64,000 nt of DNA from Candidatus Poribacteria bacterium (GTDB taxonomy: Bacteria; Poribacteria; WGA-4E; WGA-3G): contig CAXXLX010000001.1 in assembly GCA_963665235.2 (NCBI GenBank), positions 640,001 through 704,000 of the forward strand, written 5' to 3'. The notes under the pieces were generated by a model. The model ran no database searches. It saw only the letters and a program-made list of their open reading frames with translations, and was not told the DNA's origin. The translations under genes and the position numbers were made by a program. Below, in pieces: positions 2,998 through 41,345 of this stretch. Every line of letters starts with the position of its first letter. Position 1 is the stretch's first letter.

Positions 2998-3786
2998 ATG
3001 AGAAAAAATACCTTTCGAGAATTGCTCAACGCTGACAAACCCACCGTCGGCACACATATCCATACCACCTGGCCCTCCATCGTTGAGGCGATTGGACACA
3101 CCGGAATGTATGACTATGTCGAATTTGTGGGAGAATATGGCCCATTTGATCTGCACGATTTGGATAATTTATGCAGGGCAGCAGAACTTCATAACATCTC
3201 CACGATGATTAAGGTAGACCAGGAGCCGCGCGGTTTCATCGCACAACGTGCAATCGGTTCAGGTTTTCAGAGTGTGCTTTACGCCGATTGCCAAAACGTT
3301 GAAGATGTGAAGGAGTGTGTCCGGACTACACGGGCGGATACGCCAGAGGATGGCGGCAGTTACGGCGTGGCTACTCGCAGATTCGCCTATATGGGATACG
3401 GCGGCGGCCCACAATACGTACAAGCTTTACGAGATGTGGTCGTTGTTATTATGATTGAGAAACAGGGGACCGTCGAAAACCTCGAAGAGGTGTTATCTGT
3501 TGAAGGGGTTGATATGATTCAGTGGGGCGGCTCCGATTATTCCATGAGTATTGGCAAAGTCGGGCAGCGCGGCTCCCCAGAAATCCAAGAGACAGAGCGG
3601 CGCGTCTTTGAAACCGCCATCAAAATGGGGGTACCGCCTCGTGCAGAAATCGGGAGCGCGGATGGCGCGAAACGTTTTCTCGATATGGGCGTACGGCATT
3701 TCTGCATCGGCACCGATATTTCCATCCTCTACGGATGGTGGCGCGAACATGGCGATGGACTTCGGAAAGCTCTCGAAGGACATTAG
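2998..3786 (+). CDS. HpcH/HpaI-family aldolase
   Basis: YDYVEFVGEY, VVIMIE, GVDMIQWGGSDYSMSIG motifs; GAGG RBS. Confidence 0.88.
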   Translation: MRKNTFRELLNADKPTVGTHIHTTWPSIVEAIGHTGMYDYVEFVGEYGPFDLHDLDNLCRAAELHNISTMIKVDQEPRGFIAQRAIGSGFQSVLYADCQNVEDVKECVRTTRADTPEDGGSYGVATRRFAYMGYGGGPQYVQALRDVVVVIMIEKQGTVENLEEVLSVEGVDMIQWGGSDYSMSIGKVGQRGSPEIQETERRVFETAIKMGVPPRAEIGSADGAKRFLDMGVRHFCIGTDISILYGWWREHGDGLRKALEGH

Positions 3787-3796
3787 CGTAATTGTC

Positions 3797-4046
3797 GTAG
3801 GGGCGGGGTCACCCCGCCCGCATAACGAAAGCACAATCGCAGGGGCGGGGTCACCCCGCCCGCATAACGAAAGCACAATCGTAGGGGCGGGGTCACCCCG
3901 CCCGCATAACGAAAGCACAATCGTAGGGGCGGGGTCACCCCGCCCGCATAACGAAAGCACAATCGTAGGGGCGGGGGGTCACCCCGGGGTCACCCCGCCC
4001 GCATAACGAAAGCACAATCGTAGGGGCGGGGTCACCCCGCCCTTAC
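3797..4046 (+). repeat. Tandem array of 6 REP units (42-bp period)
   Basis: GTAGGGGCGGGGTCACCCCGCCC palindrome plus constant linker GCATAACGAAAGCACAATC; unit starts at 3797, 3839, 3881, 3923, 3965 and 4020. Confidence 0.9.
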
Positions 4047-4065
4047 AGGAATGAGACACGCTCTC

Positions 4066-4794: not shown

Positions 4795-4947
4795 TGTGTA
4801 ACCTCCAATTTTGATTTAGGGGCGGCTGCATCTGTCGGATTTTCTGTGTTCAACCCTACAGTGAAACCGCTCCGAAATATACTAATACCATTTTTATTAA
4901 TTATCCTATCATTACCGGTCGTTAGAAATGAAACGGAGAACGGAAGA

Positions 4948-5096
4948 CACAAACTGGAAGTTTATGCTACAAGAAAGCACAAACTGGAAGTTTATGCTAC
5001 AAGAAAGCACAAACTGGAAGTTTATGCTACAATAAAGCACAAACTGGAAGTTTATGCTACAAGACCGCACAAACTGGAAGTTTATGCTACAATAAA
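4948..5096 (-). repeat. Tandem array of 5 REP units (30-bp period)
   Basis: Minus strand GTAG-CATAAACT-TCC-AGTTTGTG-C hairpin repeated five times. Confidence 0.88.
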
Positions 5097-5128
5097 GAGA
5101 CATTTCCAATTAGAAATGGTATAACCTT

Positions 5129-6148: not shown

Positions 6149-6579
6149 GTGATAGACCCCCAGCTAAAGCATGGGGGCTTCCGCAAAGTTATGCGAAAGC
6201 GTTCGTGCGATTAACGACCTTGTTTAGAAAACCTATAGCGGTTCTCCAGGGACAGAAGCCTACTGCAACAGACACTACCCTGACTGCGACACCGAAGTGT
6301 CCTTGTGAAATTTGTTTTGAGTCGTATTGTTCAAACGGGTTTCAGCATTACCTGTCTTTCCCTACTAACGACTGTCGTGCTACACTTTCTGACTAAGACA
6401 TTAGAGCTTTACACTATAGGAAGTCTAATCAGGAGGCGCGTAACTGCCCTCTATAGCAACCGTACACTCTAAATTTATTAGACGCTATTTTCACTAAAAG
6501 GTTTGGTGTGCAATCAAAGTTTTTAGCGGTGTCTACATCCCCCAGCTAAAGCTTGGGGGTTTTGACACCGAAGACAAAG
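6149..6579 (+). mobile_element. Non-autonomous IS200/IS605-family element (no ORF; possible omegaRNA-like RNA)
   Basis: Subterminal hairpins CCCCCAGCTAAAGCATGGGGG and CCCCCAGCTAAAGCTTGGGGG...CCGAAGACAAAG|ATAA, the same end architecture as the IsrB element. Confidence 0.75.
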
Positions 6580-6766
6580 ATAATCGCTTGCACAGCACGC
6601 TCCTACATAAGAGGGGAAGGTAGGCCCTTAACGATTTCCACCGTCTTGAGGCTCACGGTGATGACGCGGGCGATTAAGTCTACGATATTGAGAGTATAAT
6701 AACAGCTGTGATAGGACAAATCAAGGATTTTTTTAATTGTCATGCTAAAAGAAACATAATCAGCTC

Positions 6767-14997: not shown

Positions 14998-15648
14998 TCA
15001 CTTTAGCTTGTGGCTACCACTTCCGATTGTCGACCAGTCTCGATCCACCGTCCAACTTCCACCTGCCGAATCAGTTGCCGTCCTGTGAAAATCCTTGGAC
15101 GCTTCTTCCCATGAACCGCCCGGTATAATTCCAGTCAAACGCCATTTCCAGTACACGGGGACTAATTTGATAGAACCACTGGCATCCCATGGATATTCCT
15201 TTGGCATTCTTTTAAAAGGCCCCGTAAATGATAACTGAATCTTGTGATCTATATCTAGGGCCAGGGCCACGGGTAGAAAACCGACCCACTTCCCGAGTTT
15301 CTGTGACGTTGTATTATTAGGATCGCCATAAGATTTTCCATCAATATTGCCATAGAAAAGGATATGTGCCCAACCGAAACCATGTGCTTTGGCTGTTATT
15401 GAAACTTTAGGGGAACGTGGTTCCTCATACCAAAAATCATACATGACTTTACCATCTGCTTTAGTTCTGCGATAATGGATAAAGAACTTACCATCTATAT
15501 TACACGAAATCTCGATCTCGGGCTCGCTTGTAAAATTTAAGTCTGGTGTTTCCACACGATGGAGATTGTGGGCTTTTACCCCCATCCCGATTGCAATTAT
15601 AAAACTAAAAATGAGGATGAAAAGTGAAATTCGCTTTTTAGATAACAT
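14998..15648 (-). CDS. Secreted hypothetical protein
   Basis: Signal peptide ending VKA; beta-rich mature part; its RBS overlaps the stop of the upstream gene (TAGGAGGTTTTCAATG). Confidence 0.75.
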   Translation of the reverse strand: MLSKKRISLFILIFSFIIAIGMGVKAHNLHRVETPDLNFTSEPEIEISCNIDGKFFIHYRRTKADGKVMYDFWYEEPRSPKVSITAKAHGFGWAHILFYGNIDGKSYGDPNNTTSQKLGKWVGFLPVALALDIDHKIQLSFTGPFKRMPKEYPWDASGSIKLVPVYWKWRLTGIIPGGSWEEASKDFHRTATDSAGGSWTVDRDWSTIGSGSHKLK

Positions 15649-15658
15649 TGAAAACCTC

Positions 15659-16438
15659 CTATTCCCAGGGGGAAATTAAGTGTTCTAATCCATGTTCTCG
15701 GAGCGCGGCATTGAGTTTCTCTCGCGTAACACGGTCCGATTTTGCTATGGCTTCATCACCCACCGCACTGGTCATCACATGAACAGGACGAACCCTTTGC
15801 ACCGCTGCTTCAAGTGCCTCAATTTCCGCAGAAAGCCGCTCGACTTCATCAAAATCGCCGCGTGCTTCCGCCCATCCCTGATCTTCCAGCAGTTGATTAT
15901 ACCTTTCGAACTCCTCGCGGGTCGGTGCAAAATCGACTCTCATCTGTATATCCACAATTGGCTCGCCTATTTTATGTAAAACGGGGTTGCCGTTTTCATC
16001 CAAAAGCGGCACGTTTATATCCTTCCAGCGATATTGATATCCACGAGGCGGCGGTTTCAACCCATGTTGAATATAAAATTGGTCAAGGATTTGCTGCTGT
16101 ACTTCCCGCGAAAGCGACCAGAAATCGGGAGTGTTGTCGGTTTCCTGCCCATCAGATGTCTCATCAGACATGCCAACGTCAACCTGTTTGCTATCATCAG
16201 ACATTGGAACATTGTTTGAAGCAGGGTCAGATCGACGCTGTCTGTTCTGTTCCGACACAGTTACCAGGTCCGCAGTTCCCGGTTCGGTTTTCTTTCGAAT
16301 GTTATCTAACACTTCCTTTGCGGGAGGTTTATAGATAACTTCGGGTTCGGTATCTACATTGTGATTCAGTAGGAAGATGGCACTTCCGATAACTACTATC
16401 ATCAGGATACCAATTCCTACATAAACTTTTTGGGTCAT
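15659..16438 (-). CDS. Membrane-anchored hypothetical protein
   Basis: Single N-terminal TM segment, polar low-complexity linker and C-terminal domain; GGAGG RBS. Confidence 0.75.
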   Translation of the reverse strand: MTQKVYVGIGILMIVVIGSAIFLLNHNVDTEPEVIYKPPAKEVLDNIRKKTEPGTADLVTVSEQNRQRRSDPASNNVPMSDDSKQVDVGMSDETSDGQETDNTPDFWSLSREVQQQILDQFYIQHGLKPPPRGYQYRWKDINVPLLDENGNPVLHKIGEPIVDIQMRVDFAPTREEFERYNQLLEDQGWAEARGDFDEVERLSAEIEALEAAVQRVRPVHVMTSAVGDEAIAKSDRVTREKLNAALREHGLEHLISPWE

Positions 16439-23659: not shown

Positions 23660-24156
23660 AACTCTTCTATAGGAGCGTGCTGTGCACGCGATATTACGAC
23701 CCCATATTTTCAAGATATTACGCGCTCCTCTGTAGGAGCGTGCTGTGCACGCGATATTACGACCCCATATTTTCAAGCGCGCTCCTCTGTAGGAGCGTGC
23801 TGTGCACGCGATATTACGACCCCATATTTTCAAGAGCACTCCTCTGTAGGAGCGTGCTGTGCACGCGATATTACGACCCCATATTTTCAAGAGCACTCCT
23901 CTGTAGGAGCGTGCTGTGCACGCGATATTACGACCCCATATTTTCGCACTCCTCTGTAGGAGCGTGCTGTGCACGCGATATTACGACCCCATATTTTCAA
24001 GAGCACTCCTCTGTAGGAGCGTGCTGTGCACGCGATATTACGACCCCATATTTTCAAGAGCACTCCTCTGTAGGAGCGTGCTGTGCACGCGATATTACGA
24101 CCCCATATTTTCAAGAGCACTCCTCTGTAGGAGCGTGCTGTGCACGCGATATTACG
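23660..24156 (+). repeat. Tandem array of 9 REP units (about 57-bp period)
   Basis: GTAGGAGCGTGCTGTGCACGCGAT plus an invariant linker; units at 23669, 23732, 23789, 23846, 23903, 23956, 24013, 24070 and 24127. A solo inverted copy lies at 6583-6606. Confidence 0.92.
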
Positions 24157-24210
24157 CGCATTAGGTATTAACCTCTTACGCGCTCAAGCCGAGCTCACGA
24201 CTGAGAACCA

Positions 24211-26031
24211 TCACCCCAACCGTTCTTTAACCTTTGTTTTATCAATTTGTGCCTCGGCGACAAATTCCTGATATTGCGGGGGCAGGACTTCTGGCAGCAT
24301 TGCGCGAGAATTGGCTTCGTGCAATGCAAGTAACCCCATGAAGAGTTGCATCTCCGGTGAATAGTCGGGCATAAAATCTTCCACTACTTCGAGCAGGTCA
24401 GCTTGGGTCATAGCATTCCGATTGTTCCGTTTTGCAATGTTATGACCGCGTTGTGCAATTTGTGCAATGTCACTGACGCTCAGCCCCTCCATTTTCGGGT
24501 TTCGGGCAATTTCTTGGAAATTAATTTGCTCGCGCGTGTGCATTCGGCAAAAGAACTGCAAAATGCCTGCTCGGCTCTCCTGCATTGGGGCGAGAAAAAC
24601 CAATTTGTGTGAAAAAATCTCCGGCTTGCGAAAAATTGGCGGCATTAAGTCCGGGCGACTTGATGTACCGACCCATATCACTTTGCCATGCAAGGAGGCA
24701 TCACTGATAGCATTGGTCAGGCTCACTGGAAACGAGCGTTCCCAACTTTCCGCTTGGATACTTGTATGTGGAGAGGCCTGCTCAATCTCTTCCATAAATA
24801 CAACGACCGGCGCAATCCCCTTAATAAAGTTAATCGCAGCGATGAGGTTACGTTCATAACTGTTGCTGTTCTCATTAATATTAATCGTTACCTCGCTGAC
24901 CTGATTGGCGTAGCGGAGCCGTACTAGTGCCATGTTTGTTTGGCCTGCAAGCAAGCTCGCTGCATACACGTTCCCATTTCCAGTGGGGCCAAGGAAAAGT
25001 ATTCCCCGGGGTATCCGCCGTCTGTCTTCCTGTTCCATTCCCTCAGCAATATCTTGAATGACTCGTGTTACGTGGGCGGACCAGTGCTGTTGCCGGGTGG
25101 CAATAGGTTCGTTAATTTCAATAATTCCGTGGCTGAAGGTTTTGACACTTTCGCGTCGGTAGGTACGGAGTATGTCGCCGCCCACTTTCTGACCGTTAGA
25201 GGCTGCGTGCCGTGCCATATCGTGAATACCGAAAAGATTTAAGCCAGCTGTATTGTGTGCTAAAGCCTGCTTCTCTTGCGTATTGCCGAAATTTAAATTG
25301 ACCTGTGTAACCCGCCCCGGCGAGTCCGCCATAGAAATCTCCTGCGGAATAGCACCGAGATGTTCAATAAACTTCAGACGTTCGTCATAATCCGGAAACG
25401 GAATTTCGACGAGAGGCATCTCCTGATTGACCAGCAAATTCGGGTGAATATCGTACGTGTTTTGCGTAATAAGCAGAACGATATGCTTTCGTCGCCGTAT
25501 CTCCAAATCGGCAGCCCAATTTTGGAGTTGGTGGAAAAACAGTTTGAGCTCATCTTTTGCTGGCAGGTTTATCGATGGGTCGTTGGGGGCAATCTGTTCA
25601 AGATAATTGATGACCAATCCGATTCGGACCCTGTTTACTTTTAGCAGGTCGTGCATCTTCTGTATCAATTCCTTTGTAGGGACCGGATCGCTTTTATAGA
25701 AACCATCTTCATGAATCTTGTTGACTGCAAGTTGTGAATTAATCCTTCTCCGCTCGGGCGTTTCATCCGGGGCATCCTGGTTTTTCGGAATAAGTCCCAG
25801 AATTTTCTGCGTTTCCAACCACTTTCCCACATGGGGCCATGCGAACCCTTGCGTGCTGTTGTAACCGAGAACCAACTGGCATCCGAGTCTATTGAGTTGT
25901 TCCATCAGATAATCCAAGGTAGGTAAGTAGCCGTAAACTTCATCGTGCAGCAGGTCTTGCACATTAAAGTGCAGTAAAAATTGATGTGCAGCAGCGACTT
26001 TGTATTGTGTTTCAATCTGTTCCCAAAACAT
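24211..26031 (-). CDS. AAA+ ATPase-fold protein with degenerate Walker motifs
   Basis: PRGILFLGPTGNGN, VVFMEEIEQ, GTSSRPDL and PFPDYDER segments. Confidence 0.75.
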   Translation of the reverse strand: MFWEQIETQYKVAAAHQFLLHFNVQDLLHDEVYGYLPTLDYLMEQLNRLGCQLVLGYNSTQGFAWPHVGKWLETQKILGLIPKNQDAPDETPERRRINSQLAVNKIHEDGFYKSDPVPTKELIQKMHDLLKVNRVRIGLVINYLEQIAPNDPSINLPAKDELKLFFHQLQNWAADLEIRRRKHIVLLITQNTYDIHPNLLVNQEMPLVEIPFPDYDERLKFIEHLGAIPQEISMADSPGRVTQVNLNFGNTQEKQALAHNTAGLNLFGIHDMARHAASNGQKVGGDILRTYRRESVKTFSHGIIEINEPIATRQQHWSAHVTRVIQDIAEGMEQEDRRRIPRGILFLGPTGNGNVYAASLLAGQTNMALVRLRYANQVSEVTININENSNSYERNLIAAINFIKGIAPVVVFMEEIEQASPHTSIQAESWERSFPVSLTNAISDASLHGKVIWVGTSSRPDLMPPIFRKPEIFSHKLVFLAPMQESRAGILQFFCRMHTREQINFQEIARNPKMEGLSVSDIAQIAQRGHNIAKRNNRNAMTQADLLEVVEDFMPDYSPEMQLFMGLLALHEANSRAMLPEVLPPQYQEFVAEAQIDKTKVKERLG

Positions 26032-30584: not shown

Positions 30585-31682
30585 TTAGATACTATACGAA
30601 AGGCCATCCGTATTAGATTCCGCATGTGCTTTAAGGGTTCGCCTATCGATACCTAAGGAGGCCGCGGCCTTAGCTAATGTTGGATGTTTCGCCATGCGTG
30701 CTTGCACCACTTGACGTTGAACGTCGCGTAAGCTCATATTTTCCGCGCAGAATATCTCCGTTTCAAGTGAGCGCGGGAGACTTTTTAAGCATGTGCGTAT
30801 GATTCCATACTGAGTCTCTGCCGGAAGTGCTTTCAATTGCGAAATCAACTCCACAACAGATATTGAATGTGAAGGTGTCTGCTTTCTCAAAGGCTGCTGC
30901 GAATTGTGTTCAACTGAAAAGTTATGTGGAAAATCCGCAAGTTCAAGTGTATCAGCGGTTGTATGTGCAATAGCCACTCGAATCGTGTTTCGCAGCTGGC
31001 GGATGTTGCCTGGCCACCTTGCCTGTTCAAGACGCGCGAGTGCTTCAGGCGTAAACCCCTTAATAGTTTTGCGTCGTCCAACGTTATGTTCGGCGATAAA
31101 AAGGTTCACCAAAGGCGCGATATCTTCCGTTCGCTCCCGAAGTGGTGGAATCTTGAGCACCACACCGCTGAGGCGGTAGTAGAGATCCACTCTAAATTTC
31201 TGTTCCGCGATTGCTGTATCAACGTCTATGTTTGTCGCTGCGATAATTTGAACATCGGATGTCAAGACCTGATTGCCACCGAGGCGCGTGAATTTATTTG
31301 TGTCCAAGAAGCGGAGAAACATCTTCTGGGCATCGAGGGACATTTCTGTAATTTCATCTAAAAAGAGGGTGCTCCGATTTGCCTCCTCAAATGTCCCACG
31401 CCGCTGTTGGTCCGCACCGGTAAAAGCCCCCTTTTCATGACCAAACAGCTCACTTTGCAAGAGCTCAGCGGAGAATCTACCACAATTGATGGCTACAAGT
31501 GGTTTGTCTCGTCTTAAACTATTGGCGTGAATATATTCCACAATACCTTCTTTACCAACACCGGTCTCGCCGATAATGAAGAACGGCATCTCAATATTTG
31601 ACGCGTGCACTTGTTGAACCTCGTCATAAATTGCCTGCATTGGTGCTGATGGTAATTCGATAAATGTTGGTGGTTTTTTCAT
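30585..31682 (-). CDS. sigma54-dependent enhancer-binding protein lacking an N-terminal sensor domain
   Basis: GETGVGKE, ELFGHEKGAFTGA, LFLDEI, FRVDLYYRL, WPGNIRQL and a C-terminal Fis HTH; the AAA domain starts almost at the N-terminus. Confidence 0.92.
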   Translation of the reverse strand: MKKPPTFIELPSAPMQAIYDEVQQVHASNIEMPFFIIGETGVGKEGIVEYIHANSLRRDKPLVAINCGRFSAELLQSELFGHEKGAFTGADQQRRGTFEEANRSTLFLDEITEMSLDAQKMFLRFLDTNKFTRLGGNQVLTSDVQIIAATNIDVDTAIAEQKFRVDLYYRLSGVVLKIPPLRERTEDIAPLVNLFIAEHNVGRRKTIKGFTPEALARLEQARWPGNIRQLRNTIRVAIAHTTADTLELADFPHNFSVEHNSQQPLRKQTPSHSISVVELISQLKALPAETQYGIIRTCLKSLPRSLETEIFCAENMSLRDVQRQVVQARMAKHPTLAKAAASLGIDRRTLKAHAESNTDGLSYSI

Positions 31683-31784
31683 AACAACCTCCTTTTTTGC
31701 AAAAAATGATACCAAAATCCATTTTTTGAGTCAAGAAAAATTTTAATGTCCACAACCCCTGTCACCTCCAAAATTATCCCATAA

Positions 31785-31838
31785 GGCAATTTCTGCTGCG
31801 GATAACGACAATTTCTGCCGCCGATAGCGACAATTTGT
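31785..31838. promoter_or_regulatory. Candidate upstream activator sequences (3 direct repeats, 22-bp period)
   Basis: CAATTT cores at 31787, 31809 and 31831 within G(G/A)CAATTTCTGCYGCSGATARC units, about 200 bp upstream of the sigma54 promoter. Confidence 0.55.
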
Positions 31839-32021: not shown

Positions 32022-32037
32022 TGGCACGAAATTTGCT
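32022..32037 (+). promoter_or_regulatory. sigma54 (-24/-12) promoter
   Basis: TGGCACGAAATTTGCT is an exact match to TGGCACG-N4-TTGCW and is divergent from the activator gene. Confidence 0.88.
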
Positions 32038-32201
32038 ACTAATATCTAAAGTAGCAACCCGCTCCGGTTTTAGTGGGTTGTAGGAGGATGTTTGAAATCT
32101 ACGCGATATCAAAGATGTTTCTCAAGAGATAGTCCTTGTGATTGCGAAACATTTTCACAAGCTCACCCTGTGAAACATCTGAAAACGAAAGAGGTTCTAA
32201 A

Positions 32202-32978
32202 ATGTTACGCGAATATTTTACAAATAGGTGGACTATAGGTGGTTTCTTATTGCTTCTGCTTTTCGCGGTGTTTTGCCATCTCTGGCTTCGGCAGGAGACT
32301 GCGAAACTCCAAAAACAGGAGGCGGAAAACGCAGAGGGACACCGCCAATTGATAGATTCCGAAAAAGTGGATACTAACAGCAAGGTGGAACAACAAGCAG
32401 GCGATGCTCCCGTAGAAAGCATCACGTCCCCCTCGGGGAAAACAGCCGAAAGAATCGAGGCCGTATCGGAAACCGGCACTACCCCCAACGCGGCAGAGGA
32501 TACCGTTTCCACAGTCACATCGGAAACGGAAAACACAACTGGCCGGGTTTCCCCCTACGGATTCGGGCCCTACCCTGAAATTCCACCCGGCTATCCAGAC
32601 CCGAATATCTTTGATAAACCGAGGTCCTCTATAACGTACGAATTAATGATGCGCGTTGATGTTAAGTTATGGCAACAAGGTATACGCACCGAGGGCATAG
32701 GGATTAGTTATAAAACCGGACTAGTTTATCCGACCATCCCAGGGACTATTTATGTCACTTGGACAGATTTCCGCATGCCGAATGGCAGTGTGACACGAGT
32801 CGCTGGAAGTATAAGCGGACATTCAGACACGGTGGATGCCTTACCTCGGCGTGGTTTACCCGGAATTCCTTCGAGTCCCTCAAACTTTGTATTTGAAAGT
32901 GATATTCCATCACATATCAGAATTCTAGAAGACTCTGAGGGCATAGACCCTTACGAGTTCCTAAACTTAAAGGAGTAA
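32202..32978 (+). CDS. Membrane-anchored hypothetical protein
   Basis: N-terminal TM, T/E/S-rich linker and C-terminal domain (VSPYGFGPYPEIP...GIDPYEFL); GAGG RBS. Confidence 0.8.
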   Translation: MLREYFTNRWTIGGFLLLLLFAVFCHLWLRQETAKLQKQEAENAEGHRQLIDSEKVDTNSKVEQQAGDAPVESITSPSGKTAERIEAVSETGTTPNAAEDTVSTVTSETENTTGRVSPYGFGPYPEIPPGYPDPNIFDKPRSSITYELMMRVDVKLWQQGIRTEGIGISYKTGLVYPTIPGTIYVTWTDFRMPNGSVTRVAGSISGHSDTVDALPRRGLPGIPSSPSNFVFESDIPSHIRILEDSEGIDPYEFLNLKE

Positions 32979-32983
32979 CCAAA

Positions 32984-33175
32984 GTAAAGATCACCCTGCT
33001 AAAGCATGGGTGCTTTGACATAGCGTAACCACACGTTCCCTGTCAAAGATTAAGTTCTTCACTACAGTAATATATCGGTATATCTGTGGTGGTGCACAAA
33101 GGTGTTTCGGATGCTCCCCAAGTCCGATGTAAACGCTGATATACCGATCTGGATGGGGAAATACAAACTCTACGG
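32984..33175 (+). ncRNA. omegaRNA scaffold of the IsrB element
   Basis: The 5' GTAAAGA can pair with TCTTCAC; blocks ACTACAGTAATATATCG, GATGCTCCCCAAGTC and GATCTGGATGGGGAAA are shared with the standalone element at 40877-41345. Confidence 0.75.
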
Positions 33176-33188
33176 AGAATTACAAACT

Positions 33189-34217
33189 ATGTTTGTTCCT
33201 GTCGTTGACAAAAACCAAAATCCACTGATGCCGACAAAGCCTTCGCGGGCAAGGAAGTGGATACGAGACAAGAAAGCCACACCGTTTTGGAAGAATGGCG
33301 TTTTTTGTGTGCGCCTTAACGCCGACCCTTCGGATAGATACTTCCAACAGATATGCGTAGGCGTAGACCCCGGCAGTAAGAAGGAAGGCTTTACCGTCAA
33401 GAGCGAGGCACATACCTACCTAAATGTGCAAGCAGACGCTCACAACAAGGTTGGAAAGAAAATCGAGAAGCGTCGGACGTTGCGGAGAAGCAGACGCACA
33501 CGGAAATGCCCGAATCGAAAAAAGAAGCAGCACAACCTGTCGAACCGGAAGCGTATCCCTGCAGGCACACGTGCAAGATGGGATTGGAAACTTCGCATAT
33601 TAGATTGGTTGTCTAAACTCTATCCTGTTACACACGTCTGTGTTGAGGATATTAAGGCGCGGACAAAACAGTATCAAAAGCAGTGGAATCAGGCCTTCAG
33701 TCCTTTGGAAGTGGGCAAGCATTGGTTCTATTCAGAGGTAGAAAAGCGATGGGAACTCCTGACGATACAAGGGTTTGAAACCAAAGAGATACGCGAGCGG
33801 CTTGGTCTCAACAAGTCGTCAAAGAAGTTAGCTGAAACCTTTGAGGCACATTGCGTTGATAGTTGGTGCTTGGCCTATCACACCGTTGGCGGTTTAGAGA
33901 TACCCGACAATACCGATATATTCTGTATCTCACCGATACCGATACGCAGGCGAGAACTCCACAGACAAAATCCGCAGAAAGGTGGCAATCGCCCGCGATA
34001 TGGTGGCACCTTATTAGGCGATGGACTTGTTAAAAACACATTAATAAAGCACAACAAATACGGATTAACACGCCTTGCGGGTGTTAATGCTAAAGGACTA
34101 TTCTCTGTCTATTCAAAAGATGGACACCGATTAACAACGGGGGCAAAACGCACGGATTTTCAAGTGCTAACACGCTTGAACTTCAACTATAAAGGCGGAT
34201 TTTCCTCCCCCGCATAA
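33189..34217 (+). CDS. isrB: IsrB RNA-guided nickase (PLMP and RRXRR, split RuvC, no HNH)
   Basis: PLMPT, GVDPGSK, RRSRR, CVEDI and HCVDS motifs; 342 aa with no CxxC/HNH insertion between RuvC-II and RuvC-III. Confidence 0.85.
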   Translation: MFVPVVDKNQNPLMPTKPSRARKWIRDKKATPFWKNGVFCVRLNADPSDRYFQQICVGVDPGSKKEGFTVKSEAHTYLNVQADAHNKVGKKIEKRRTLRRSRRTRKCPNRKKKQHNLSNRKRIPAGTRARWDWKLRILDWLSKLYPVTHVCVEDIKARTKQYQKQWNQAFSPLEVGKHWFYSEVEKRWELLTIQGFETKEIRERLGLNKSSKKLAETFEAHCVDSWCLAYHTVGGLEIPDNTDIFCISPIPIRRRELHRQNPQKGGNRPRYGGTLLGDGLVKNTLIKHNKYGLTRLAGVNAKGLFSVYSKDGHRLTTGAKRTDFQVLTRLNFNYKGGFSSPA

Positions 34218-34247
34218 ATGCTGGGGGTTTCCAATCCGAAGATTTTG

Positions 34248-34850
34248 ATGAAAAAGTTTTCTGTTTTATTAATCATCGCGATGACTTTTAGCATCACCCT
34301 AATCGGTTTTTCTAAGCGTGGTCCAGTTAATGGAAAATGGTACAACCGCGATAAAGATGTAGAAAAACGATGGACTGACCGTGAAACCGCTGACCCCGAG
34401 ATACCCGATTTCTATATAACGATTACAAGGGAAGGTGAAGATTCTGACGGGCCGGCGTTTAGTGAGAGTTATGCATCGGCTGATCAGCATCTGCTATATG
34501 CCTGGACATATATAGGTGCAAGAGGCTCTGCACCGCACGATGTATGGGAGTGGCGGGGGTCCGCATTCTTAGCTCATGATTGGGTTACAACGACCCCGGG
34601 ACCAAATCCTCATGCCGATTCAGGCGCTATTAAAGGGGACTTTACAAAAGAATTCAATGTGTATTTGAGAGAATTCGGTCACCTCCCACCTGAGGGCACT
34701 ATCTCTGATTGTCAGTCAGATGGTTGGGTAGCGTCAGACATAGCAAAGATCTCTCCCGAGGAACGTCATAGCACGTTAAGCCGAACGGATGATAACCATA
34801 GAGATATCTACATCAACGGGAAAAAACAGCAACCAGAGGATAACCCGTGA
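34248..34850 (+). CDS. Secreted hypothetical protein
   Basis: Signal peptide MKKFSVLLIIAMTFSITLIGFS; the ATG directly abuts the IsrB element end. Confidence 0.75.
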   Translation: MKKFSVLLIIAMTFSITLIGFSKRGPVNGKWYNRDKDVEKRWTDRETADPEIPDFYITITREGEDSDGPAFSESYASADQHLLYAWTYIGARGSAPHDVWEWRGSAFLAHDWVTTTPGPNPHADSGAIKGDFTKEFNVYLREFGHLPPEGTISDCQSDGWVASDIAKISPEERHSTLSRTDDNHRDIYINGKKQQPEDNP

Positions 34851-34874: not shown

Positions 34875-35049
34875 TGTATGCGCGCTTTGATGAAGTTTAA
34901 ATAAAATTTCGGTAATCGACAAGCAATAAATTGCCGGACTACAAACAAACGCGTTCAGTATTCGGGCAAGCAGCCCGCTCCTCTGGGCGATTTATTACCC
35001 GTTCCGAAAGGACCGAATTTAAAAATTAATCTTCATAAGCGCGCATACA
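34875..35049. mobile_element. MITE-like element with internal REP fragments
   Basis: Imperfect TIRs TGTATGCGCGCTTTGATGAAG...TTCGGT and ACCGAA...CTTCATAAGCGCGCATACA; REP-like cargo at about 34920-35003. Confidence 0.65.
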
Positions 35050-40844: not shown

Positions 40845-40876
40845 AAAATTTCTCCTTCTTCATCGCGCTTTGTCAT

Positions 40877-41345
40877 CAAAATATTCGGTGTGGAGACCCC
40901 CAGCATTTATGCGGGGGAGGAAACACCGCTCCCATTCGTTCTATATTTCCCCCCAAAGGGGGAGTCGGGTTGTTTTTTCGCCACAAGCCCGTAGGCGTTC
41001 CTCGCAGACTGTGCTGCTTCGTTCAACAGAACTCGCACTTTCTGTTTACTTGACCTGACACGGTATCTTTGAAAAAACAGGTAAGGCCCCTTTCGGGTTC
41101 TCCGCTTACGCGGGTATATGTTTCCCCATCCAGATCACATAAGCGTAGTGGGTTAAGACTTGGGGAGCATCCTTCAGTGAAATCGTCCAACCACAGACGA
41201 CCCACCTTTTTAGATAACCATACTTTGGACTGCCATGTCCAGCCTCTGCGATATATTACTGTAGTCAACAAGTTACCCTCGTCCCTGTAATAGCCTTGGC
41301 GGGCATCAGGGACAAGCCCCCATGCTTTAGCTGGGGGTTATTGAC
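40877..41345 (-). ncRNA. Standalone omegaRNA/HEARO-like RNA in an ORF-less IsrB-family element
   Basis: Minus strand begins GTCAATAACCCCCAGCTAAAGCATGGGGC...GTTGACTACAGTAATATATCG...GATGCTCCCCAAGTC...GATCTGGATGGGGAAA and ends TTCCTCCCCCGCATAAATGCTGGGGG...CCGAATATTTTG|ATGA. Confidence 0.82.

Follow-up and report, generated by a model that had tools for sequence, protein, structure and literature searches.

An IsrB element between a Shine-Dalgarno sequence and its start codon in a Candidatus Poribacteria genome, and the occurrence of its family at ATGA start codons

The locus, the element and its empty allele

The window analyzed here is a 64,000-nt stretch of the genome of a Candidatus Poribacteria bacterium (GCA_963665235.2, contig CAXXLX010000001.1, positions 640,001-704,000, forward strand), and window coordinates are used throughout. 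It contains a non-autonomous element of the IS200/IS605 superfamily (ISC1/IsrB type) at 32984..34247 on the plus strand, 1,264 bp long with the termini GT...TG, which lies exactly between the ribosome-binding site and the start codon ATG of a gene. The upstream gene (32202..32978, plus strand) encodes 258 aa without a Pfam family according to the open reading frame (ORF) list and the sequence. Its final codons AAG GAG and the stop codon TAA (32976-32978) hold the Shine-Dalgarno (SD) sequence of the next gene. The SD sequence AAGGAG is located at 32970-32975 and its spacer TAACCAAA extends to 32983; the downstream gene has its ATG at 34248-34250. The left junction reads ...AAC TTA AAG GAG TAA CCAAA followed by the element, GTAAAGATCACCC... 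(at greater length, GTAAAGATCACCCTGCTAAAGCATGGGTG...). At the right junction, the element ends with ...GATTTTG and the host sequence continues with ATGAAAAAG (at greater length, ...CCGAAGATTTTG followed by ATGAAAAAGTTT). The downstream gene (34248..34850, plus strand) begins as MKKFSVLLIIAMTF... and encodes 200 aa without a Pfam family; its N-terminus, MKKFSVLLIIAMTFSITLIG, resembles a signal peptide by eye. An earlier note on this DNA pointed to the same overlap of stop codon and ribosome-binding site in an uninterrupted gene pair at 15648-15661. The overlap is present there on the minus strand (TGG GAA TAG-GAGG-TTTTCA-ATG), and paralogy of the two gene pairs was ruled out (BLASTP E values of 1.4 and 7.4).

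The limits of the element were established from its copies and from an empty allele. The left boundary, 32984, is position 1 of the match to the Rfam HEARO model, and 15 left-end copies in the genome begin to agree at the point matching 32984. All left ends begin with GTAAAGATC... or GTCAATAAC..., and the sequence preceding them is not conserved. The right ends are all alike through ...TTGATGA and divergent beyond it, and comparison of the copies alone cannot place ATGA inside or outside the element. In the public run X2, a contig (3,042 nt, depth 31.7) spans 32100-32983 and then joins 34248 directly, with one difference in 884 nt. The 1,264 nt skipped by this contig have the ends GT..TG, and the joint shows no letters common to both sides and none extra. 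Because 32983 is joined to 34248 without common letters, ATGA lies outside the element and no target duplication was formed. The X2 contig thus contains the scarless empty allele AAGGAG-TAACCAAA-ATG that the earlier note had predicted and proposed to look for in reads. The filled junction was bridged by no contig among those listed, the filled allele being the assembly itself, and in runs X4 and X6 neither junction was bridged among the contigs listed. An orthologous empty site was not found among the species genomes compared; the downstream protein was weakly matched in 2 of 40 relatives, which included no genome of the same genus.

The element lacks terminal inverted repeats and has subterminal imperfect hairpins in their place. 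The hairpin CACCCTGCTAAAGCATGGGTG at 32992..33012 (plus strand; DNA fold of -6.7 kcal/mol, z of -2.57) belongs to the transposon's canonical right end, and the hairpin CCCCCGCATAAATGCTGGGGG at 34207..34227 (plus strand; -11.1 kcal/mol, z of -2.79) belongs to its canonical left end. Both hairpins are bulged and have a TAAA loop; the distance is 20 nt to the cut on the ATGA side and 8 nt to the other cut. The loop of the hairpin at 34207..34227 holds the TAA stop codon of the IsrB gene, and after this stop comes an ATG that shares the frame of the host ATG. The final 13 nt before ATGA, and ATGA itself, are unpaired in the DNA fold of the element end. Along with the hairpins, insertion without target-site duplication, a scarless empty site and a target conserved at one end only (the left flanks being unconserved) are the features of the ISC1 group of IS200/IS605.

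The IsrB gene (33189..34217, plus strand) encodes 342 aa and has its own GGAG 11 nt upstream. RRXRR (1.4e-32) is the sole Pfam family in this ORF, and no HNH family was matched. Residues 3-293 align to DtIsrB of Desulfovirgula thermocuniculi (8DMB) with an E value of 9.6e-38, and the PLMP and RuvC motifs (NPLMPT, VGVDPG, VCVED and EAHCVD, the last three with DPG, VED and H..D) are aligned between the two proteins. The NCBIfam model guided_IscB was matched by the N-terminal part only, below its cut-off. The protein therefore has the makeup of an IsrB, namely, the PLMP/RRXRR region, a split RuvC with catalytic D, E and H/D, a size of about 350 aa and no HNH domain.

The omegaRNA scaffold occupies 32984..33188 on the plus strand and may extend into the ORF. 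The HEARO family (RF02033) was matched at 32984-33164 from end to end of the model (positions 1-211) with 25.8 bits and an E value of 0.0064 in a 1.6-kb search, a score that falls under the gathering score of the family, 83; at gathering thresholds, Rfam gave no matches in the window. When 15 distinct copies from this genome were aligned, compensatory changes were detected in 11 of 45 consensus pairs of the omegaRNA. They include the closing stem, GUAAAGA/UCUUCAC versus GUCAAUA/UGUUGAC, which is built from the first bases of the element. This covarying structured RNA from the transposon end, directly 5' of the nuclease ORF and co-oriented with it, has the features of an omegaRNA. The identities of IsrB and omegaRNA and the limits of the element were thus as predicted from the letters alone.

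The left flank directly 5' of the scaffold (32964..32983, plus strand) would be the 20-nt guide of the omegaRNA, its length being borrowed from DtIsrB (PMC9581776). This putative guide holds both the SD sequence AAGGAG and the spacer. On the other side, ATGA (34248..34251, plus strand) is the target of TnpA and the putative target-adjacent motif (TAM) of IsrB, and its ATG is the start codon. The background on which the earlier note had relied for TAM, guide source and excision is correct. The TAM of DtIsrB is NTGA (PMC9581776), and ISC1 elements, the IsrB group, begin with GT and insert at N|ATGA according to empty-site comparison (Kapitonov et al. 2016, PMC4810608). The TAM of GstIscB is TTCAT, which is ATGAA on the nuclease strand; its omegaRNA borders directly on the transposon end, and because the guide is encoded beyond that end, outside transcription is needed (Meers et al., bioRxiv 10.1101/2023.03.14.532601). 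The same preprint reports scarless excision in this transposon family and a bias of IscB elements toward the orientation of the upstream gene. A guide taken from the left flank and transcribed from outside, as proposed for this locus, agrees with these results.

A candidate source of outside transcription is located upstream. The sigma54-type -24/-12 promoter-like site TGGCACGAAATTTGC at 32022..32036 (plus strand) is the only match in the window without a mismatch to TGGCAC-N5-TTGC, the consensus of sigma54 promoters. It is one of 63 window matches with at most two mismatches, a number that chance would account for. The site lies between the operon and a divergent gene for a sigma54-dependent activator, an AAA+ enhancer-binding protein (30585..31715, minus strand; Pfam Sigma54_activat at 4.2e-59, AAA_lid_14 and HTH_8). 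Elements at fixed spacing next to the gene of an enhancer-binding protein are what is expected of a sigma54 promoter, and the promoter is predicted on this basis. On the plus strand, no terminator-like site was found after the promoter until 34973 (34973..34989), and no sigma70-like site was found before 33893. Transcription of the omegaRNA by read-through from the sigma54 promoter, which the earlier note had suggested, is plausible from this arrangement. The contigs of RNA run X7 were 90-95% alike and came from a relative, and they are uninformative on transcription here. Two direct copies of GATAxCGACAATTT(C/G)TG are present at 31796-31838, 5' of the promoter-like site, and may be sites of the adjacent activator.

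Copies of the element and their association with start codons

The host genome (G000) comprises 5.3 Mb in 4 contigs. It gave 49 BLAST matches to the element region and 39 right ends with nhmmer (E < 1e-6). Of the elements, 23 are 900 nt or longer, 20 of these with an ORF of at least 322 aa, and protein-less derivatives of 450-650 nt are also present. Copies elsewhere in the genome are 94-100% identical to the element. The element itself carries no transposase, and 13 matches to PF01797 (Y1 transposase) are found elsewhere in the genome; 4 of these 13 genes are adjoined by a hairpin of the same type and a related left end. Because copies with 99-100% identity and 13 Y1 transposase matches are present elsewhere in the genome, the element appears to have been recently active. 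The pairing rule of IS608, by which the nucleotides 5' of the hairpin foot correspond to the target of TnpA, gave no clear fit. Among 60 other genomes of the bacterial family, the end motif was present in 30, and the reversed control gave 0.

ATGA follows 36 of the 39 element ends in G000, the exceptions being GATAC, GAGGA and TATTG. In total, the genome has 39,618 ATGA sites, of which 17.5% (6,920) open an ORF, the threshold for an ORF being at least 100 aa in all counts. The ATG is the first of such an ORF at 4.9% of all ATGA sites, and 3.2% of all ATGA sites open such an ORF with an SD core (scored as GGAG, GAGG or AGGA) 4-12 nt upstream. At the element ends flanked by ATGA, the ATG opened an ORF in 22 of 36 cases (P = 6e-9). 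Where both element ends were located (30 copies), the empty sites were rebuilt by script: 19 opened an ORF, 13 with the first ATG (P = 5e-10), and 11 of the rebuilt sites had an SD core (P = 1e-9); both a first ATG and an SD core were found in 9. These ATGs are native starts, as profiles align from position 1-2 for leuC, argJ, murJ, BatA and 5-formyl-THF cyclo-ligase.

The association was replicated in the other genomes of the family. With one locus taken from each of 29 genomes, 18 of the 29 ATGs opened an ORF, and in G053 and G067, this was the case for 28 of 53 sites. Pooled and without 2 shared loci, the replication gave 44 of 80 (30 other genomes of the family). Many left flanks in G053 and G067 read ...GGAGG plus 5-9 nt directly 5' of the element.

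How much of this association has to be explained depends on the null model. By gene calls, 33,357 ATGA sites are inside genes, 4,972 are intergenic and 1,348 are at predicted starts. The expected share of start codons is 3.4% if all ATGA sites are equal, 21% if only insertions at non-coding sites (plus starts) survive, 32.5% when only sense-strand sites 5' of a gene count and 45.4% when sense-strand sites must lie between co-directional genes. The observed proportions, 22/36 and 44/80, exceed the first three expectations (P = 4e-4 and 3e-5, respectively, against 32.5%). Against 45.4%, the excess was marginal (P = 0.04 for 22/36, 0.05 for 44/80 and 0.35 for a stricter 18/36). Because ATGA starts make up 33-45% of the sense-strand non-coding ATGA sites, no special targeting of start codons is needed. 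The occurrence at start codons is real and replicated, and it is largely explained by target motif and selection. ATGA specificity together with survival at transcribed non-coding places suffices on the condition that insertion between SD and ATG does no more harm than insertion in a leader. The earlier note had proposed that ATGA targeting biases insertion to start codons: the copies indeed abut starts far more often than ATGA sites do in general, but targeting of the start codon as such is not required.

A preference for start codons at the insertion step beyond ATGA, for instance through a TnpA that reads a longer A-rich context or single-stranded initiation regions, is unlikely in our view. 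Such a preference would account for the excess over the 32.5% expectation, and 20 of the 36 sites read ATGAA (counted by eye), like the TTCAT TAM of GstIscB (Meers et al. preprint). However, the left flanks have no common motif, an A after ATGA is also expected from a lysine second codon, and the excess over the co-directional expectation is only marginal.

Several other copies and repeats were observed. At the start codon of a BatA-family gene (MNFLQP.ALIALP...), an element is present in two genera, in G000 (C1:784535) and in G053 (L142). The two copies differ in left flank and size (1,264 versus 409 nt), which would fit either an old insertion or more than one hit on the same start codon. 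Within the window, a protein-less 469-nt derivative of the same element family is found at 40877-41345 (minus strand), with ATGA at 40873-40876; it sits in a 5' leader, 32 nt 5' of the apparent true start (GAAGGAGAAATTTT-ATG), and is co-oriented with the gene. At C1:419213-419581 of G000, a partial element lies between two copies of a host sequence of about 41 nt starting with ATGAGATTCCGGG; this looks like a local rearrangement, and the upstream copy resembles an empty site, ...TTGAAG|ATGAG. Remnants of the last 27-60 nt of the element occur directly 5' of ATGA at C1:1970575, C2:569786, C1:2446899 and C1:392401. Of these four remnants, one follows a tRNA cluster and two precede intact genes, whose products are a DUF6599 lipoprotein and a BCCP-like protein. 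The same type of hairpin end, with GTCTACATCCCCCAGCTAAAGCTTGGGGG, is present at 6531-6562 of the window and at C2:340291, C1:4266716 and C1:1142359 of G000. These are ends of other IS200-like elements, and a Y1 TnpA gene adjoins the one at C2:340291. The window also has tandem arrays at 3753-4059 (42-nt units with the palindrome GGGGCGGGGTCACCCCGCCC), 4943-5122 (30-nt units) and 23661-24270 (57-nt units, whose core is the inverted repeat that is located at 6583-6613).

Translation behind the element and the likely course of events

In the filled state, the 16 nt 5' of the ATG, CAATCCGAAGATTTTG, contain none of GGAG, GAGG and AGGA, and no hidden SD sequence was found in the element end. The statement of the earlier note that the gene is separated from its ribosome-binding site thus holds at the sequence level. 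From this separation, the note had proposed a reversible on/off switch in which insertion removes the ribosome-binding site and silences the gene and scarless excision by TnpA restores it, giving ON and OFF cells for a sigma54-controlled secreted protein. Both alleles do exist, the filled one in the assembly and the empty one in the X2 contig of a near-identical strain (1 difference in 884 nt), and excision is scarless in this family (Meers et al. preprint). The same polymorphism is equally expected from a recent insertion, and homing by IsrB would oppose stable empty alleles.

The same geometry at other genes also argues against a switch. Full-length elements are likewise placed before leuC and argJ in G000. 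The argJ gene is the sole ArgJ match in the genome, and besides leuC, the only match to the aconitase family is a 927-aa open frame. Another full-length element precedes the best MurJ match in the genome, and a 60-nt end remnant sits 5' of the gene for the BCCP-like protein. In G067, a protein-less copy of about 463 nt is located between rpsE and rplO, at the ATG of rplO; all 13 other genomes read from the genus of G067 have the uninterrupted ...AAGGAA-10 or 11 nt-ATGAAACT before rplO. The products of leuC, argJ and murJ of G000 and of rplO of G067 each align from the native N-terminus. In addition, a start-codon insertion before the gene of a Tat-signal protein is common to G053 and G067, with 731 of 762 columns identical, indicating that it was retained in two species. 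At the rplO insertion (L072), the left flank reads ...GATTCAG before GTCAATAAC, which is one extra G at the junction; in 12 of the 13 relatives the flank reads ...GA(T/C)TCA|ATG or ...AACTA|ATG, and in G053 it reads ...GATTCG|ATG.

Because the same arrangement is found at leuC, argJ, murJ and rplO and one insertion is common to two species, silencing of the downstream gene is disfavored, and translation behind the element probably continues. An on/off switch is improbable as an account of this locus. The folding energy of -30..+21 at filled junctions (mean of -6.8 kcal/mol, n = 22) resembled that of native starts (-6.1, n = 600), unlike that of mid-gene controls (-9.0). At this locus, the TAA stop codon of IsrB at 34215 directly abuts the ATG in frame with 34248 (34215-34220), and translational coupling to IsrB is possible from this arrangement. 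Coupling via the IsrB stop was rejected as a general route: that ATG is missing from one subfamily, a 2-nt deletion breaks the frame in the copy before leuC, and the IsrB gene is absent from most copies in G053 and G067.

The insertions could also inactivate genes and persist under relaxed selection, in a genome that decays while insertion sequences expand. In favor of decay, copies number in the dozens (39 right ends and 23 elements that reach at least 900 nt), other hairpin elements are numerous, open frames are broken by several copies, and short end remnants of 27-60 nt exist. On the other hand, the downstream ORFs at the start-codon sites are all intact and of full length by profile, rplO is part of a ribosomal protein operon, and half of the other family genomes (30 of 60) show the pattern as well. 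We regard genome decay as an explanation with little chance of being right.

In our judgment, the data are most likely explained by a recently active non-autonomous ISC1-type element, made up of an omegaRNA and an IsrB nickase gene, which was pasted 5' of a start-codon ATGA, is retained at transcribed non-coding sites and is tolerated by the genes. A Y1 TnpA encoded elsewhere in the genome would paste the element directly 5' of ATGA (TCAT on the other strand) without duplication. Where ATGA is a gene start, as here, insertion would separate the SD sequence AAGGAG from the ATG by 1,264 bp. The omegaRNA would have no promoter of its own for the guide and would depend on transcription that reads through the operon, with the sigma54 promoter at 32022 as its probable start, and the guide at the 5' end of the read-through RNA would be the last 20 host nucleotides up to 32983. 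By analogy with the published homing model, IsrB and its omegaRNA would recognize the empty allele through the guide match and the ATGA TAM, nick it and favor re-copying of the element. Transcribed-sense non-coding ATGA sites would be the only places where the element is expressed without breaking a reading frame. About half of the copies of the family would then be at start codons because ATGA starts make up a third to half of the non-coding sense ATGA sites. Insertion between SD and ATG is apparently tolerated even at housekeeping genes and would most likely lower translation or leave it as it is, not turn it off. Initiation may occur at the same ATG via the last 13-20 nt of the element, which are unpaired and rich in U, or by re-initiation after termination of IsrB 30 nt upstream.

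Going one step further, the ATGA-side end may be a portable, SD-independent translation start context. Such a context would allow the element to reside between the SD and ATG of housekeeping genes (rplO, leuC, argJ and murJ) with limited harm, to borrow their promoters for its guide RNA and to use ribosome-binding regions as guides. This proposal is tentative, and we hold it to be somewhat less probable than its opposite. If it is true, presence or absence of the element would tune, and not abolish, downstream expression, an effect comparable to IStron splicing.

Several observations weigh against a tolerated, recently active element. The empty allele is known from a single X2 contig, which extends exactly 30 letters past the joint, and the TnpA-bearing elements that were seen have the flank TTAT, not TCAT. 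Open frames are interrupted by 5 or 6 of the 30 copies, so harmful insertions are not always purged. Regarding translation, the 16 nt before the filled-state ATG are devoid of an SD core, and not all of the genes concerned need be indispensable: MurJ has two weaker family paralogues in the genome, the organism might be auxotrophic, and L15 is dispensable in some Escherichia coli mutants. Regarding the counts, the gene calls behind the null models come from a crude ORF heuristic (4,498 genes in G000), the background rate of start codons for the other genomes was taken from G000, and some sites are orthologous between related genomes, so that the counts are not fully independent.

Significance and comparison with known systems

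Cas9 descends from IsrB and IscB elements, whose natural biology has been little studied. A habit of residing at start codons would show the source of the outside transcription that the guide needs, and natural guides would be host ribosome-binding regions. It also raises the question of how rplO, leuC and argJ are translated with 0.4-1.3 kb between SD and ATG. The filled and empty alleles would make a clean natural pair for nickase homing. If translation is simply lost, the locus reduces to an ordinary insertion sequence polymorphism whose geometry has a neat explanation.

The element belongs to a known family, within which it is ordinary. The element type, the N|ATGA target, the guide encoded outside, the dependence on read-through and the orientation bias are already known from the sources cited above. 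Residence of IsrB elements at start codons was not found in the published literature searched, many subscription papers lying outside that search. The term "start codon" is absent from the accessible text of the ISC paper (PMC4810608), whose supplementary empty-site alignments (S4 and S6) may show some cases. In the accessible part of the Meers preprint, the term appears once, in a figure legend on distance, and "ATGA" and "upstream gene" are absent from a 2026 review.

The closest likeness is to ISC1-1_MA of Microcystis (PMC4810608), which is also non-autonomous, is about 1.3 kb long, carries one IsrB gene and has a 5' GT and subterminal hairpins. ISC1 elements likewise insert 5' of ATGA without duplication, as established by empty-site comparison. 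They differ in the 3' terminus, which is CG in ISC1 and TG here, and about half of the 116 ends examined here are at start codons, which the accessible text of PMC4810608 does not mention. The DtIsrB-omegaRNA complex (8DMB; Hirano et al. 2022, PMC9581776) shares the PLMP motif and the continuous RuvC and is homologous over residues 3-293; its TAM is NTGA, and its omegaRNA is about 300 nt long. Identity to DtIsrB is low, and nicking next to NTGA is a predicted activity of the IsrB described here.

ISGst5 with GstIscB of Geobacillus stearothermophilus (Meers et al. preprint) resembles the element in the omegaRNA at the transposon end, the guide and transcription from outside and the orientation of the upstream gene. 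There, TnpA and the nuclease share a motif, and homing acts on the donor joint. In contrast to IsrB, which is a nickase, IscB carries an HNH domain and cuts both DNA strands, and the accessible part of the preprint does not discuss insertion exactly at start codons. IStrons, which combine an IS200/IS605-type element with a group I intron (PMC4227781), belong to the same superfamily and also limit harm to the interrupted gene. However, IStrons splice out of the mRNA, whereas no ribozyme was seen in the element described here, for which harm would be limited by a position that spares the coding sequence and preserves the start codon.

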